Part shown: positions 24,616-31,432 of the stretch, piece after piece
How the letters are laid out: the number at the start of each line of letters is the position of its first letter
How positions within the stretch are numbered: the stretch's first letter is position 1
Origin: Chloroflexota bacterium
Lineage (GTDB): Bacteria > Chloroflexota > Limnocylindria > Limnocylindrales > CSP1-4
Assembly: GCA_043739665.1 (NCBI GenBank)
Contig: JAYUDR010000022.1
Location: 1 to 43,161, forward strand
Length of the DNA stretch: 43,161 nucleotides
Direction of reading: 5' to 3'
Made by a program: the position numbers and the translations under genes
Notes under the pieces: model-generated
What the model saw: only the letters and a program-made list of their open reading frames with translations
Told to the model about the DNA's origin: nothing
Databases searched by the model: none

Positions 24616-26177
<1,562 letters not shown>

Positions 26178-26225
26178 CCCGGGACTGATCTTTGGTCCGG
26201 CTACGCTGCTAGGTGAGCCAGAACC

Positions 26226-26336
26226 TCAGACCCCATCCTCCGCACTTCGGGGCCGCCAGGGCATACACAACATCGAACAGCGCAGGCACGAGGCCATGCG
26301 CGAGTTCTCCCGGCGGCTGAAGGCGTGGCTATTCAT
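26226..26336 (-). CDS. Met/Cys-rich leader peptide (36 aa, MNSHAFSRRENSRMASCLRCSMLCMPWRPRSAEDGV)
   Basis: Hand translation; 3 Met + 3 Cys within 12 codons; ATG 9 nt after a TAGACT -10; overlaps the antiterminator arm. Below the ORF-track cutoff. Confidence 0.75.
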   Translation of the reverse strand: MNSHAFSRRENSRMASCLRCSMLCMPWRPRSAEDGV

Positions 26337-26345
26337 TGCCCGCGC

Positions 26346-26375
26346 AGTCTAGGCGAGTAGCTGCGCATTGTGCAA
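26346..26375 (-). promoter_or_regulatory. Sigma70-type promoter for leader-metY-metX
   Basis: TTGCAC (26375-26370) - 18 nt - TAGACT (26351-26346). Confidence 0.6.
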
Positions 26376-26434
26376 GTCCAGGTGCTCGCGCCGCAACACC
26401 GCAGGTCGGGCGGGCCCGCGGCCTGGGGCAAAAC

Positions 26435-27637
26435 CTACGCATGGTCGAGGGCCTGACGGAGGTCGGCGACCAGGTCCGCGGCCGACTCAATGCCGACCGA
26501 GAGGCGCACGAACGCCTCGGGCACGGCCAGCGCCGAATCCGCGACCGAGGCGTGCGTCATCACGGCCGGCAGCTCGATCAACGACTCCACGCCGCCGAGC
26601 GATTCGGCCAGGATGAAGATGCGGGTGCCTTCGCAGACGGCTACGGCCCTCTCGCGGGCGGAGCGGCCGCCCAGCGCTGCCGGAATGAAGCCGACCATGC
26701 CACCGCCGGAGCCACTCATCTGGCGGACGGCCAGGGCTGCCTGCGGATGGGCATGTGGGCCGTCGACCAGGCCCGGATAGCGGACTTCGGCCACGTCGTC
26801 GCGGGCGGCCAGAAAGCGGGCGACGGTCTCCGCGTTCTCGCCGTGGCGCTCCATCCGAAGGACCAGCGTCCTGAGGCCGCGCAGGATCAGGAAGCAATCC
26901 TGGGGTCCCGGAATGGCACCGTTGGCGTTCTGCAGGAAGTGGAGCTGGTCGGCGACCTCGTCGTCGCTGGTGACGGCGACACCGGCGATCGTGTCGGAGT
27001 GCCCGCCGAGGTACTTGGTCGCGGAGTGGTAGACGATGTCCGCGCCCAACTCCAGCGGGCGCTGCAACGCGGGTGAGGCAAAGGTGTTGTCGACGACGAT
27101 GAGCGGTCGGCGGCCGCGGGATCCGCGATGCCCGGCCACGGCAGCCGCGACGGCACCTATGTCCACGAGTCGAAGTAGGGGATTGGTGGGCGTCTCGAAC
27201 CAGACCAGCCGGGTACGCTCCGTGAGGTTTGCGTCGAGCACCGCCGCGGGATCCGCCGCCAGGTCAACGAAGCGGGCCTGAACTCCACGCGGCCGTGCGA
27301 CCTTGTCGAACCACCGGAATGTGCCGCCATAGACGTCGTTGCCGACGATCACTTCGTCGCCCGGGAGGGCCAACTCGCCGATGGTCGACGTGACGGCGCT
27401 GCCGGAGGCAAAGGCGATGCCGTGCGCGCCGCCCTCCAGGTCCGCCACAGCGCGCTCCAGCCGTGACCGCGTGGGGTTGCCGGTTCGAGCGTATTCCCAG
27501 CCGCCGCGAGGACGGCCGACGCCGTCCTGGGCGAAGGTGCTGGTTTGGTAGATGGGCGGCGAGACGGCGCCGGTTAGCTCGTCGGGCTCGCCGCCGGCAT
27601 GGACAACACGCGTCTCGAATTCGAACTTGTCAGCCAC
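26435..27637 (-). CDS. Cystathionine gamma-lyase / gamma-synthase family PLP enzyme (likely gamma-lyase of reverse transsulfuration)
   Basis: YARTGNPTR, ETPTNP, VDNTF, HSATKYLGGHSD, AESLGGVESL; overlaps the CBS stop. Confidence 0.9.
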   Translation of the reverse strand: MADKFEFETRVVHAGGEPDELTGAVSPPIYQTSTFAQDGVGRPRGGWEYARTGNPTRSRLERAVADLEGGAHGIAFASGSAVTSTIGELALPGDEVIVGNDVYGGTFRWFDKVARPRGVQARFVDLAADPAAVLDANLTERTRLVWFETPTNPLLRLVDIGAVAAAVAGHRGSRGRRPLIVVDNTFASPALQRPLELGADIVYHSATKYLGGHSDTIAGVAVTSDDEVADQLHFLQNANGAIPGPQDCFLILRGLRTLVLRMERHGENAETVARFLAARDDVAEVRYPGLVDGPHAHPQAALAVRQMSGSGGGMVGFIPAALGGRSARERAVAVCEGTRIFILAESLGGVESLIELPAVMTHASVADSALAVPEAFVRLSVGIESAADLVADLRQALDHA

Positions 27638-29117
27638 GTCGGCCTCCGGCAGCGGTAGTGTGGTTTAGGAACTCCAGCAGATCGAGCCGGGTCGCGATGC
27701 CGGTCGGCGATCCGTCGCGGATCAAGACGACCGCCTGCGCGCCGCCGGACAGTAGCCCGTACGACTCCTCGACCGCGGCGTTCTCGTCCACGAGCGGCAG
27801 CGGCCTGTCCATAACCTCACCGACCGTCCGGCCGATGATGGCGGGGTCGCGGAAGGCACGGTCCAGCAGACCGCGGTCCGAGACGGAGCCGACGATCGAA
27901 GCCGCGTTTACGGGTGCGCCCACTGCCGCCTCCGAAACCGGCATCTGGCTGATGCCGTATTCCTGAAGCCGCGTGATTGCCGCGCCCACCGTCTCTGTCG
28001 TGTGGATGACGACGAGGGGTGGAAGCGCCGTGCCGTGGTGGTGGTCGGACAGAAGATCACCGATGCGGGCGATCGATGCCGGCCGTGTGAGGAGCCCATG
28101 CTCGCGCAGCCATTCGTCGTTGTAGAGCTTCGAGAGGTAGTTCCGGCCGGTGTCCGGCAACAGCACCACGATGACCGCGTCAGCGCCCACGCCGCGCTCG
28201 GTCAGCTCACGGGCAACGACAAGAGCCGCCACGAGCGCAGTCCCCGACGACTCGCCGGCGAGGATGCCTTCCTCCCGAGTCAGCCGTCGCGCGGCCGCGA
28301 AGGCATCGGCATCCGGCACTCGCACCCACCGATCGACGAGATTGGGGTCGAGCGTATCAGGCCAGAAGTCCTCACCCACGCCTTCGGTAAGGTACGGCCG
28401 CGGAACGTCGCCCGAGAACACGCTGCCCTCAGTGTCGCCGCCGACCACGACAACGTCCGGCCGCTGCGACCGCAGATAGCGGGCCACTCCGGTGATCGTT
28501 CCGCCCGTGCCGGCGCCGGCTACGAAGTGAGTCACCTTGCCGGCCGTCTGGCGCCAGATTTCGGGCCCGGTGGTTCGTTCGTGGGCCGCCGGGTTCTCCT
28601 CGTTCCAATATTGGCCGGGCATGAACGCGCCCGGAATGTCGCGGGCCAGTCGCGCCGCCACCGAGTAGTAGCTCTCGGGCGACTCAGGTGGCACGGCCGT
28701 GGGGCATACGACAACCTCGGCGCCATAGGCGCGGAGGAGGGCTTGCTTCTCGGACGACTGCTTGTCGGCCATAACGAAGATGCAGCGATAGCCCCTGAGC
28801 GCAGCGGCGATGGCCAGGCCGTGGCCGGTGTTGCCGCTCGTTGGCTCGATGATCGTCCCACCCGGCCTCAACAGGCCGGCACGTTCGGCCGCCTCGATCA
28901 TGGGCAGGCCGATCCGGTCCTTGACCGAGCCTCCCGGGTTGAGCATTTCGAGCTTGGCCAAGACGAGAGGTTGGCGATCGATCGGACCGAGGTCGCGGGT
29001 GGTGCGGCTGAGCCGGACGAGGGGCGTATTGCCTACGAGGTCCAGGATCGAGTCGGCGAACTCGATGGCGTTGCCAGGGGCTGCGGCGACGGAGAGGCGA
29101 GATGCCGCGAGTGTCAT
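27630..29117 (-). CDS. cbs: Cystathionine beta-synthase with C-terminal CBS-domain pair
   Basis: NPGGSVKDRI PLP lysine, EPTSGNTG, GAGTGGT, EGVGEDFWP, PDTGRNYLSKLYND, C-terminal GISQMPV CBS domains; ATG 29117 behind GGAG. Confidence 0.92.
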   Translation of the reverse strand: MTLAASRLSVAAAPGNAIEFADSILDLVGNTPLVRLSRTTRDLGPIDRQPLVLAKLEMLNPGGSVKDRIGLPMIEAAERAGLLRPGGTIIEPTSGNTGHGLAIAAALRGYRCIFVMADKQSSEKQALLRAYGAEVVVCPTAVPPESPESYYSVAARLARDIPGAFMPGQYWNEENPAAHERTTGPEIWRQTAGKVTHFVAGAGTGGTITGVARYLRSQRPDVVVVGGDTEGSVFSGDVPRPYLTEGVGEDFWPDTLDPNLVDRWVRVPDADAFAAARRLTREEGILAGESSGTALVAALVVARELTERGVGADAVIVVLLPDTGRNYLSKLYNDEWLREHGLLTRPASIARIGDLLSDHHHGTALPPLVVIHTTETVGAAITRLQEYGISQMPVSEAAVGAPVNAASIVGSVSDRGLLDRAFRDPAIIGRTVGEVMDRPLPLVDENAAVEESYGLLSGGAQAVVLIRDGSPTGIATRLDLLEFLNHTTAAGGRRG

Positions 29118-29200
29118 TAGTGACTCCGGGTGACGATGAGGTGGTGCCGAGGACATGAGCAGGGCGGAAGGGCTGCGACCCCGCCGACCGGTTCGAGCGG

Positions 29201-29235
29201 AATCAAAAGGCCGCAACTCCGATGAAGCTGCGGCC
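29201..29235 (-). terminator. Intrinsic terminator (attenuator) in the cbs leader
   Basis: Minus strand GGCCGCAGCTTC-ATC-GGAGTTGCGGCC (12 bp, 2 G-U) followed by TTTTGATT. Confidence 0.85.
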
Positions 29236-29258
29236 CCGCATGGTCTGTGCCCGGCTCG

Positions 29259-29345
29259 TCAGGTCGCGACGTGCTCGGTGCCAGACCCCATCCCTCGATG
29301 GCGGGGCCGCCTCGAACACGTACAGAGAATGCGCACTGATTTCAC
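29259..29345 (-). CDS. Leaderless Cys-containing leader peptide (28 aa, MKSVRILCTCSRRPRHRGMGSGTEHVAT)
   Basis: Hand translation from GTG 29345, 6 nt after extended -10 TG-G-TCTAAT (29360-29352); TGT-ACG-TGT Cys pair just ahead of the antiterminator arm. Confidence 0.7.
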   Translation of the reverse strand: MKSVRILCTCSRRPRHRGMGSGTEHVAT

Positions 29346-29413
29346 GAGGAAATTAGACCACAGAATGGCCACGGCGTGCGGCTGTCTCCGATGAGCGCGG
29401 GCTGAGGCCGCAC

Positions 29414-31432
29414 CTAGAACGTTGGGCGCGGGCGTTTGCCGGGTGTCATCGCGTCGAAGCGAGCCTGCGCGCGGCGCGTCAGCGGGTTCTCCTCGCCCAG
29501 GGTGCGGCGGTAGCCGTCGACAACGGTCCGAGCCTGATTGCGGGCGGCGATCTTCTTGCCGAGCATCAACAGCGCGTTGGCGTCGCGGCTGGCCATGGCG
29601 AGTGTGTCCGGATCCTCCGGACCGGGCGACTTGCGCAGGATCGCCACCGCCTCACTGTAGAGGACGTGGGCCTCCGTTGGGTTGCCGAGCTTGAGCGCAA
29701 TGTCGCCGAGATGGCCGCGCAAGTCGGCCACGGCCCGGCCGCGCCGGCCCTCGATCTGCAAGTAGCCATCGAGCGTGCGCTGATATGTGGCGCGGGCGGC
29801 TTCGCACTGGCCCAGGCGCTCCAGAGTTAGGCCCAGCCCGAGGCCCAGCTCGAGCGTCCGCGGGTCGTCGGCGCCGACGGCCCCGGCACTGCCCGCATAG
29901 ATCCGGCCCAGAGGGCCGGCCACTCGTTCGGAGATCGTGCGGGCCTGCTCGCTTTCGTCAATGTCGTCGAGGGCCTCCGCCAGCCAGACCAGACTGTCGA
30001 GGGTGCGTTCGCCTTTGGGCCCGTAGAGCTGCTCGTGCGTCTCCACCAGCTGGGCCCAATAGCGGCGGGCAGACTCCAGCTCACCGACCTTGCGTAGTTC
30101 CCACGCCAGCCCCCGGAGAGCGTTGAGCGTTTCGTCCGCCTCGGCACCCAGGCGCCGGTCCTGCGTTTCGTATAACCGTGCGTAGGCTCGTCGGGCGTCG
30201 GCGTGAGCGCCCAGCTTGCCCAGGACCCGGGTCAAGCCCTGGAGCGTCCAGACCGTGTCAGGTTCGTCGGGGCCGATGGTTCGAGTGCGAGCCTCCGCCA
30301 GTTCACTCAGGCGCGCCGCGGCCCCACTCAAGTCGCCCAGTTGCTCCATGTTCCAGGCCAGGTCACCAATTGCCCATTGTGTGGCCGCGTGGTCCGGCCC
30401 GAGGATCTTCTGGCGCCTGTCGAGCAACTGCAGGTCCAGGTCGTGGGCGCGCTTGTGATCGCCGGTCCGGCCCACCGAATCGGCCAAGCCGGCGAGCGCG
30501 TCGAGTGTGGCGATGTCCTCGGGGCCGTTGAGACGCGTCCGCTTGTCGAATAGATTTCGGTAGGCTGTGACTGCGGCTTTGGCCTCGCCGAGTCCCAGGA
30601 TCAGGCGGCTGTGTTGGGTCATGGCCGAGATCGTTTCTGGCGCATCGGGCCCGAATGTCGTGATCGTTGAGGACAGGGCCTGCTCCGAAAGGGCGCGCCC
30701 GGAGGCCTTGTCGCCGGCGCCGACCAGTGCCCGAGCCAGGCTGAGCATTGCGTCGATGGTATCGGCGTGGGTAGCACCGAGGACGCGACGGCTGCGATCG
30801 ACCCGCTCGGCCAGAACCTCGCACGCACGCGGGTATTCCTCCATGGCGATCAGCACGCTGCCGAGGTTCGTCATGGTCCGAAGCGTGAGGGCGTTCTCCG
30901 GCCCGAAAACGCGCCGCTGTGCCTCCAGTAGCTGCTCGAACGTGGCCCGGGCTGCGGCATTGTCACCGAGGGCTCGATGGGTCAGGCCGAGGTTGTGCAG
31001 GGCGCTCAGGGTCGCGGGATCGTCCGCTCCGAGGGAGTTGCGGCGGCCGGCGTAGACACGTTCGTACATGGCTCGGGCGATCGCGGGCTCGTCCATGAAG
31101 GAGAGGGCAACTGCCAGGCCATGCACCGCGGACAGAGTGTCGAGGTTGCGCGGCCCAAAGACGCGCTCCGAACGTTCCATGAGGACGGTATAGGCGTCGC
31201 GTGCGGACTGGTATTCCTCAAGCTCGATGGTGATGGCGGCCAGACGGGCCTCCACCTCGATCGTGGTCGGATGATCCGGCCCGAGGAGCTTCCGGCGAGC
31301 CTCCAACACCTGCCGGAGGACCGGCCGCTGGGACCTGGGATCTTCGATTCCTTCGAGGAGGACGCTGAGGTCCTGGAGTGCGGCGAGGCCGGCAATTACT
31401 CGAGCCGGGCCGCCGGCTGACACGCGATCCAT
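29414..31432 (-). CDS. Tetratricopeptide repeat protein (42-aa kinesin-light-chain / TPR_12-type repeats)
   Basis: Recurrent (L/F)GPDHPxT(L/I) units about every 42 aa along the whole protein; start uncertain (ATG 31432). Confidence 0.85.
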   Translation of the reverse strand: MDRVSAGGPARVIAGLAALQDLSVLLEGIEDPRSQRPVLRQVLEARRKLLGPDHPTTIEVEARLAAITIELEEYQSARDAYTVLMERSERVFGPRNLDTLSAVHGLAVALSFMDEPAIARAMYERVYAGRRNSLGADDPATLSALHNLGLTHRALGDNAAARATFEQLLEAQRRVFGPENALTLRTMTNLGSVLIAMEEYPRACEVLAERVDRSRRVLGATHADTIDAMLSLARALVGAGDKASGRALSEQALSSTITTFGPDAPETISAMTQHSRLILGLGEAKAAVTAYRNLFDKRTRLNGPEDIATLDALAGLADSVGRTGDHKRAHDLDLQLLDRRQKILGPDHAATQWAIGDLAWNMEQLGDLSGAAARLSELAEARTRTIGPDEPDTVWTLQGLTRVLGKLGAHADARRAYARLYETQDRRLGAEADETLNALRGLAWELRKVGELESARRYWAQLVETHEQLYGPKGERTLDSLVWLAEALDDIDESEQARTISERVAGPLGRIYAGSAGAVGADDPRTLELGLGLGLTLERLGQCEAARATYQRTLDGYLQIEGRRGRAVADLRGHLGDIALKLGNPTEAHVLYSEAVAILRKSPGPEDPDTLAMASRDANALLMLGKKIAARNQARTVVDGYRRTLGEENPLTRRAQARFDAMTPGKRPRPTF

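Follow-up and report, generated by a model that had tools for sequence, protein, structure and literature searches.

A candidate cysteine-sensing attenuator upstream of cystathionine beta-synthase in Limnocylindria, and a family of related leaders with cysteine or methionine codons

What does a short, cysteine-encoding leader do in front of the cystathionine beta-synthase gene (cbs) of a bacterium of the class Limnocylindria (Chloroflexota)? The question is raised by a 43,161-nucleotide stretch of DNA (contig JAYUDR010000022.1 of assembly GCA_043739665.1), the whole of which is referred to here as the window, where cbs is preceded on the minus strand by a -10-like promoter box, a 28-codon open reading frame (ORF) with two cysteine codons and a GC-rich hairpin. 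An initial annotation of this DNA had proposed an attenuator in which the two Cys codons act through an intrinsic terminator; the proposal gains support from the comparison with homologous leaders reported here, but the leader in the window itself shows no clean switch in equilibrium folding. We consider it likely, with a probability of about 0.74, that the cbs leader is a ribosome-mediated transcription attenuator sensing cysteine.

The leader and its sensor codons

The elements of the leader are listed in Table 1. The anatomy given in the initial annotation (the -10-like box, a GTG lacking a ribosome-binding site and an ORF containing C-T-C) is accurate to the base, and both the coordinates and the complementarity of its 10-bp antiterminator, exclusive with the terminator, were reproduced. 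Inspection of the sequence ahead of the leader GTG revealed none of GGAG, GAGG or AGGA, so no Shine-Dalgarno box is seen there. Arm A and the T5 arm form a perfect 10-nt complement which shares 6 nt with the 5' strand of the terminator, and because of this overlap antiterminator and terminator are mutually exclusive. When the upstream 103 nt were shuffled 5000 times with dinucleotides preserved, 5 shuffles produced a perfect complement of at least 10 nt to the terminator 5' strand, which makes such a match rare by chance.

Table 1. Positions of the cbs leader elements, the second leader and the genes in the window
Feature	Position	Strand	Details
Extended -10-like box TGG-TCTAAT	29360-29352	-	predicted leader promoter; C/T in place of the canonical A at position 2
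GTG start codon	29345-29343	-	6 nt (TTCCTC) after the -10-like box
Leader ORF MKSVRILCTCSRRPRHRGMGSGTEHVAT	29259..29345	-	28 codons and TGA (29261-29259); probably leaderless, with GTG at the predicted +1
First sensor codon, Cys 8 (TGT)	29324-29322	-	first base 13 nt ahead of the arm motif GGCGG
Second sensor codon, Cys 10 (TGT)	29317-29315	-	
Region 1 ACGUGUUC	29313..29320	-	contains the second Cys codon; pairs with region 1' (RNAalifold and minimum free energy (MFE) fold)
Arm A GCGGCCCCGC	29310-29301	-	antiterminator 5' strand; also encodes R-R-P-R
Strand B (partner of arm A) and region 1' GAGCACGU	29269..29293	-	3' half of the predicted anti-antiterminator hairpin; MFE structure of the free leader
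T5 arm GCGGGGCCGC	29239-29230	-	pairs with arm A; the terminator base is formed by its last 6 nt
Terminator hairpin GGCCGCAGCTTC-ATC-GGAGTTGCGGCC	29235-29209	-	12 bp, GC-rich, loop AUC; with the tail spans 29201..29235
Tail TTTTGATT	29208-29201	-	follows the hairpin; starts UUUUGAUU; U tract UUUU-G-A-UU
Second family member, before metY	about 26116-26376	-	TTGCAC-18-TAGACT, 36-codon ORF (ATG 26336), arm GGCGGCCCCG, GGGGCCGCGG
TPR gene, 713 aa, upstream of the leader	ends 29414	-	Pfam TPR families
cbs, cystathionine beta-synthase	27630..29117	-	TIGR01137, 516.7 bits (cutoff 510.25); GGAG 6 nt before the ATG at 29117
Cystathionine gamma-lyase/synthase family gene	26435..27637	-	NF005871, 490 bits (under the cutoff of 513); 8-nt overlap with the end of cbs
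metY, O-acetylhomoserine sulfhydrylase/homocysteine synthase	24616..26010	-	TIGR01326, 687.7 bits (cutoff 495.1); after the second leader

Searched as DNA, the 321-nt leader had no match in 40 relatives, the leaders being too diverged for blastn, and a degenerate pattern allowing 2 mismatches, run over 401 genomes, matched at about the rate of a reversed control, such that only matches with 0–1 mismatch, or those confirmed by a model, were kept. A covariance model built from 5 cbs leaders (R1) was too narrow (1/80 CBS loci), and one built from 13 leaders (R2) recovered the family. R2 had matches at E <= 0.01 in 79 of the 151 genomes of the taxonomic family (a tally that includes the unpublished G468), and in a class-wide sample at E <= 1e-5 it matched 19 of 44 genomes of family f1 and 6 of 50 of f4 (one of them unpublished, G176), with no match in f2 (0/6), f3 (0/49) or f5 (0/1). 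Extraction of arm A sites with a downstream GGGGYYG yielded 76, three of which lay inside unrelated coding sequence and were removed, and the genes downstream of the remaining 73 were classed by tblastn with Pfam and NCBIfam checks. Judged by sequence, the window element belongs to a family of at least 73 homologous leaders, whose members share a covarying terminator as well as the arm GGCGGCCCCGC and the strand that pairs with it, GGGGCCGC.

The codons ahead of the arm follow the function of the gene downstream. Sensors were counted within the six codons before arm A in all 73 leaders, most of which have them at two identical positions in the form [C/M]-x-[C/M]-x-[R/W/G]-R-P-R. Leaders of cbs (6), of a methyltransferase-cbs pair (1) and of cysE (10) contain at least two Cys and no Met in 17/17 cases, with Cys-x-Cys at the matching two codons in all 7 of the cbs type and all 10 of the cysE type; the conservation of Cys codons in orthologous leaders, which the initial annotation had put forward as a check, is therefore observed. 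All 47 leaders of O-acetylhomoserine sulfhydrylase (metY) carry Met-x-Met, with at least two Met, and in 36 of these a Cys stands between the Mets. The remainder precede a sulfite/nitrite reductase (n=1, CVCMC), threonine-synthase-like genes (n=2, MTMAM in L150 and LTMAM in L185), OsmC-related genes (n=4, MCM twice and CC twice) or a gene of unknown class (n=2).

The two parts of this module are conserved in different ways. The first Cys codon varies synonymously (TGT or TGC) among homologues, and the arm A motif GGCGGCCCCG is identical, without synonymous change, in 69 of 70 aligned leaders, therefore the cysteines appear to be kept as codons and the arm as RNA. The first sensor codon lies exactly 13 nt ahead of the arm in 53 of 71 leaders. 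This exchange of Cys and Met codons on a constant scaffold, following the chemistry of the operon, argues for ribosome-mediated sensing of amino acids, and we accept sensing by a translating ribosome mainly because neither a ligand-binding RNA nor a chance ORF would predict the match between codon and operon.

Of 51 genomes searched within the genus, 5 have close CBS orthologues (E <= 1e-165), the source genome (G000) counted. The leader precedes cbs in six further loci (L003, L005, L006, L012, L106, L090), and it also stands before cysE-PALP genes, one such copy being in the source genome. In G053 (two copies), G054 and G058, cbs is preceded by a homologous leader with a TGn-TyWAnT box, a start codon 6-8 nt further on, C-x-C at codons 8 and 10, then GGCGGCCCCGCC and the conserved GAGCGCGUCGUGAUCUGA and CGGGGCCGC, ending in a hairpin with compensatory changes and a U-rich tail. 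TGn with T[CT][TA]A[ACG]T is found 6-7 nt before the start codon in 5 of 6 leaders in which cbs is the first gene, the exception being L012 (the second copy in G053), where the box is kept and the aligned start codon is AGG rather than ATG. Across the family, 60 of 66 leaders have a -10-like hexamer 5-9 nt ahead of their start codon, the cysE-type leaders having the form TTGACG-18-CATGAT-6-ATG. All leader types conserve the reading frame over the N-terminal 16 codons; in L005 and L012 the C-terminal half has shifted frame with its nucleotides unchanged, therefore the C-terminal peptide is not the conserved feature. The helix between region 1 and region 1' keeps 6-8 of 8 pairs in the 7 cbs-type leaders, as read by eye.

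A locus that has lost, or never acquired, the leader is also informative. In L004 (G001), a cbs orthologue of 83% identity has TGG-TCTACT about 70 nt before its start, but neither leader ORF nor hairpin, which marks the -10-like box as probable promoter and not as part of the leader RNA. Further leaders of the cbs type occur at L106 (in another genus), L090 and, weakly, L099; in L090 a gene resembling S-adenosylmethionine (SAM) methyltransferases (L090:1671-2462) lies between leader and cbs, and the hairpin has a 13-bp stem and no U tract. Separately, we note that L012 has a GTG in frame three codons further upstream, overlapping the -10-like box, as well as three Cys codons (CRCSC), and that the CBS-like gene downstream of it is without C-terminal CBS domains.

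Folding, proposed mechanism and its rivals

The terminator helix covaries among the leaders. In 70 aligned leaders 94.5% of its cells are paired and 7 of the 12 pairs have compensatory changes (81 cells), giving a covariation score that no shuffle reached, for an alignment which was fitted to the helix and somewhat favours it. The 8 core pairs of arm A:T5 are formed in 559 of 560 cells of the same leaders, ten single changes all being G.U-compatible, with one mismatch besides. Changes in T5 are C to U, tolerated as G.U or offset by an A on the T3 side (L135, L183, L184), a pattern that is expected because the T5 strand has two partners. The antiterminator is thus consistent with the data, but not proven by covariation. 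A 5' hairpin is also predicted: region 1 would pair with GAGCRCGU close to the end of the ORF, and arm A with the G-rich strand B. The RNAalifold consensus of 43 Met-type leaders comprises the A:B hairpin, a spacer hairpin and the terminator.

We assessed ribosome position by masked folding of the 66 of 73 leaders in which start codon and terminator could be placed (7 were dropped), with the transcript folded up to T5, before the terminator 3' strand. The mask ended about 11 nt past the first base of the A site, to which a ribosome is generally assumed to protect. A 26-nt occlusion centred on the codon, with a nearly identical edge, was used for ilvB1 of M. tuberculosis (PMC13236596). With the ribosome stalled at the first sensor codon, the probability of A:T5 was at least 0.9 in 63/66 leaders, that of the window included, and below 0.5 in 2/66; given the spacing of 13 nt, the arm therefore begins at the leading edge of a ribosome in this position. 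The corresponding counts were 21 and 41 of 66 for free RNA, and 25 and 28 of 66 with the ribosome at the stop codon. In cysE-type leaders the stalled ribosome left A:T5 on in 10/10 and the ribosome at the stop codon abolished it in 10/10, because the ORF stops 10 nt after the arm and the terminating ribosome covers it; in masked folding, then, these leaders are a clean classical switch. Among the cbs-type leaders A:T5 persists with the ribosome at the stop codon in 3 of 6, that of the window among them. When the full-length window leader was folded with a ribosome at Cys 8, A:T5 reached 0.98.

In the mechanism that we propose, transcription would start at or beside the GTG, probably producing a leaderless message, and a ribosome would translate the leader ORF as RNA polymerase advances. 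When Cys-tRNA is scarce, the ribosome would stall with Cys codon 8 in its A site, covering region 1 and keeping open the 5' hairpin formed by region 1 and arm A with strand B and region 1'. Arm A, starting at the leading edge of the ribosome, would then be free to pair with T5 once that strand emerges, and this pairing would remove the base of the terminator and allow the polymerase to read into cbs and the gamma-lyase gene, whose products would convert homocysteine to cysteine. With ample cysteine, the ribosome would reach the stop codon and leave, the 5' hairpin would sequester arm A, the terminator would form, and transcription would end near 29203. For the window leader this off state must be kinetic (an assumed trap in which the local 5' hairpin closes before T5 is made), because equilibrium folding gives A:T5 in both the stalled and the finished state. 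From comparative sequence analysis and equilibrium folding we infer where transcription starts, that it terminates, that the ribosome stalls, and in which direction and with what kinetics the switch works; the direction is deduced from what the cysE-type relatives do and from the genes being biosynthetic.

Several observations weigh against this mechanism. The ORF of the window leader extends to nt 85, and equilibrium folding of this leader gives A:T5 with P = 1.0 in three states: free RNA, ribosome at the stop codon, and ribosome stalled at Cys 8. With the stall at Cys 10, where half of arm A would be covered, P is 0.66, and the full-length fold of the free leader is mixed (terminator 0.65, A:T5 0.45). 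Stalling at the last sensor codon leaves A:T5 at 0.9 or above in only 4 of 66 leaders. There are no compensatory pairs in A:T5, arm A being nearly invariant, and the conservation of arm A could also reflect the peptide RRPR or the A:B hairpin. Neither promoter nor terminator was flagged in a consensus scan of 28500-30000, the stability of the whole-leader fold is not unusual relative to shuffles (z = -1.55), the U tract in the window is short and interrupted (UUUU-G-A-UU), those of some homologues are poor (L090, L106, L012), and at position 2 the cbs-type -10-like hexamer departs from the canonical A. Because the leaders share ancestry, the codon and operon counts are not independent events. 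Finally, when 80 loci with cbs relatives in other genomes were examined, R2 detected the leader at 1, therefore the cbs-type leader is limited to a small clade. A crude search ahead of 78 other CBS loci for short ORFs rich in Cys returned 8 that look unrelated, and so gave no evidence of diverged leaders there.

Some of these observations would suit a different logic, or a different level of control, built from the same ORF and hairpins: a Cys stall could occlude arm A and thereby favour termination, or the leader could govern translation of cbs or the action of Rho. The fall of A:T5 below 0.5 on stalling at the second sensor (58/66 leaders), its persistence in the window leader with the ribosome at the stop codon and the weak U tracts of some family members all point this way, as do, for translational control, a UUCCUCC box after the terminator that is complementary to downstream Shine-Dalgarno boxes and the mycobacterial Cys short ORFs (sORFs) characterised so far, which work on translation. 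However, the genes are biosynthetic for the amino acid sensed, making induction by starvation the coherent logic, the first sensor is placed such that arm A is just exposed, and the cysE-type leaders switch cleanly in the classical direction. In the MFE fold through the cbs start, moreover, the Cys codons pair within the leader and not with the ribosome-binding site of cbs (GGAG at 29127-29124). We therefore regard such an arrangement as unlikely.

A second alternative, that the leader is a structured RNA binding a metabolite or protein in the manner of a riboswitch and the ORF is incidental, would account for the nucleotides of arm A, GGAGGAUGGGGUCUGA and GGGGCCGC being kept very strongly from genus to genus, and for the C-terminal half of the ORF being kept as nucleotides rather than as peptide. 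It would leave unexplained the Cys/Met swap (17/17 and 47/47) and the TGT/TGC variation, and it has to contend with a start codon at fixed distance from the -10-like box (60/66) and a frame maintained through the sensor codons in all leader types. Rfam 15 returned no family at gathering score for the window and 3 homologous loci, with E-value thresholds giving chance-level matches only. On this evidence a riboswitch-like leader is quite improbable.

That the hairpin is merely the constitutive terminator of the upstream TPR gene, with cbs under its own promoter, was named in the initial annotation as a reading that would overturn the attenuator. Taken together with a small ORF there by chance, it is very improbable: the hairpin does lie on the same strand about 180 nt past the TPR stop, and a promoter between hairpin and cbs is possible, but a TPR homologue is found upstream at 1 of 8 other cbs loci (L003 only) whereas the ORF-arm-hairpin unit stands before cbs in 6 others and before cysE and metY in other contexts, and in L004, where the leader is missing, the -10-like box is still directly before cbs. 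We rejected it since the hairpin travels with cbs and not with the TPR gene.

Other leaders in the genome and the genes they precede

The source metagenome-assembled genome (MAG) comprises 2.27 Mb at 82.5% completeness, the window being its contig 22, and it holds further members of the family. The second leader in the window, before metY (Table 1), has C.RCSMLCM preceding WRPR, an ORF ending in ...SMLCMPWRPRSAEDGV and a terminator with a long structured loop and U-rich tail; it was found by R2 with filters off (16.6 bits, E 0.0027) and missed at default filters. On contig 5 (G000:C5, L094:259-426, minus strand) lies a cysE-type leader, TTGACG-18-CATGAT-6-ATG, with an 18-codon ORF MNSHRFACFCPRRPRRRR that stops 10 nt past the arm; the serine acetyltransferase gene next to it is truncated at the contig end. 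Contigs 199 and 289 (L156:474-656, plus strand, and L157:1912-2053, minus strand) carry two diverged paralogous leaders with the arm GGCGGCCCUGCC, which precede genes resembling those of OsmC-related (seleno)proteins. These have Cys-Cys in one frame, a hairpin without a U tract and an ambiguous frame, with GTG and ATG 4 nt apart.

The genes that follow the leaders offer some functional hints. Met-sensor leaders before threonine-synthase-like genes (L150, L185) hint at a part in methionine or homocysteine synthesis rather than that of threonine; ThrC-like enzymes have reportedly been linked to a homocysteine route in Streptomyces. OsmC-related genes directly follow Met-type leaders at L133, L135, L183, L193, L165 and L158, sometimes ahead of the sulfhydrylase gene, which suggests, from gene order, a role for the OsmC-like protein in sulfur amino-acid metabolism.

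Just past the U tract a UUUCCUCC box is conserved across leader types (for example in the 29196-29203 region of the window, and in L137, L142 and L152). Its sequence complements a GGAGGA within the leader as well as the GGAGGA that serves the downstream genes as ribosome-binding site, and about 15 nt beyond it the Met-type leaders share CGACGGGUAGCCGCC. The box may represent a second, translational layer of control.

Significance and comparison with known systems

Genes for cysteine and methionine are usually described as being controlled by proteins (CysB, CymR, McbR), SAM riboswitches or T-boxes. What is new here is a probable leader-peptide transcription attenuator for cysteine biosynthesis genes, likely leaderless and in a new phylum, on a scaffold that would also sense methionine; until now, leader-peptide attenuation by cysteine has been shown as translational in mycobacteria and predicted for cysS in alpha-proteobacteria. 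More broadly, we slightly favour the view that Limnocylindria carry a modular leaderless attenuator scaffold, in which a promoter and a start codon at +1 are followed by two sensor codons, then by the invariant arm GGCGGCCCCGCC and finally by a terminator. On this view its members form a ribosome-read regulon, and the sensors changed between Met and Cys when copies of the unit came to stand before metY, a ThrC-like gene, cysE-cysK, cbs-cgl and sulfite reductase. If so, these would be the first methionine-codon leader-peptide attenuators and the first leader-peptide attenuators in Chloroflexota within the limited literature searched, where nothing pertinent to Met-codon leader peptides or to attenuators in Chloroflexi was found by title or abstract, and the cbs leader of the window would be a recent derivative retargeted to Cys.

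A single RNA scaffold bearing Cys or Met codons according to the operon would amount to a natural 'codon swap experiment', with specificity readable from the sequence. It would also give a first view of gene regulation in an abundant, uncultured class of soil and freshwater bacteria, provide a compact two-codon sensor of use to synthetic biology, and assign candidate roles in sulfur amino-acid metabolism to genes after the leaders, namely the ThrC-like enzyme and the OsmC-related proteins.

The classical leader-peptide attenuators are those of trp, his, leu and ilv in proteobacteria and ilvB1 in M. tuberculosis (PMC13236596). The window leader is predicted to resemble them in setting a terminator against an exclusive antiterminator, in having ribosome position choose the fold and in controlling biosynthetic genes. 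It differs in that its family would sense Cys (Met in sister leaders) with just two sensor codons, C-x-C, in a probably leaderless message and in an uncultured class of Chloroflexota. The layout differs as well, the shared strand (arm A) being the 5' side of the first hairpin, right after the sensors, whereas in classical attenuators it is the 3' strand of that hairpin.

The initial annotation had drawn a parallel with the poly-Cys leaderless sORFs of mycobacteria, which stands as an analogue in the use of Cys codons but not as a relationship: the host belongs to the Chloroflexota (Limnocylindria) and is not an actinobacterium, therefore the likeness is one of analogy. The 80 closest CBS loci from species-representative genomes are all labelled Chloroflexota, Chloroflexia or Candidatus Limnocylindria/Limnocylindrales MAGs, one mislabelled Verrucomicrobiia aside. 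The mycobacterial sORFs were shown to regulate by unmasking a Shine-Dalgarno site, and the authors say that attenuation for cysteine mediated by an upstream ORF (uORF) had not previously been described; cbs and cystathionine go unmentioned in their text (Canestrari et al., 10.1101/834739). Common to both systems are a leaderless short ORF (predicted here), a sensor of Cys codons, operons related to cysteine and several loci per genome responding together as a 'ribulon', which for Limnocylindria is suggested by sequence. In the mycobacterial case attenuation is translational, with the poly-Cys tract pairing with the Shine-Dalgarno region and no terminator, and the Cys codons are consecutive and near the 3' end of the sORF in Actinobacteria; the window leader instead has an intrinsic terminator and C-x-C (C-T-C) mid-ORF in a member of the Chloroflexota.

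Another related system is the uORFC-8-2 motif before cysS of Rhodobacterales, described by Brewer et al. 2021 (PMC8632094) as a predicted transcription attenuator with two Cys codons. It shares with the window leader a predicted ribosome-mediated mode of action, two conserved Cys codons, an intrinsic terminator and UGC/UGU variation. It is unlike the window leader in having tandem Cys at positions 14-15 in a uORF of the ribosome-binding-site type, in controlling a tRNA synthetase gene and not biosynthesis, and in belonging to alpha-proteobacteria, with no evident sequence relation.

A further precedent is actinobacterial. For the cys operons of Mycobacterium and P. acnes, and also for cbs of Bifidobacterium longum, Seliverstov et al. 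2005 (PMC1262725) predicted leader peptides rich in Cys, for which no terminators were found and Rho was suggested. These candidates have in common with ours a short ORF with Cys codons ahead of cys operons and of a cbs gene. Their Cys runs lie near the stop codon and are accompanied by no conserved terminator hairpin, whereas the window leader combines C-x-C in the middle of its ORF with a terminator.

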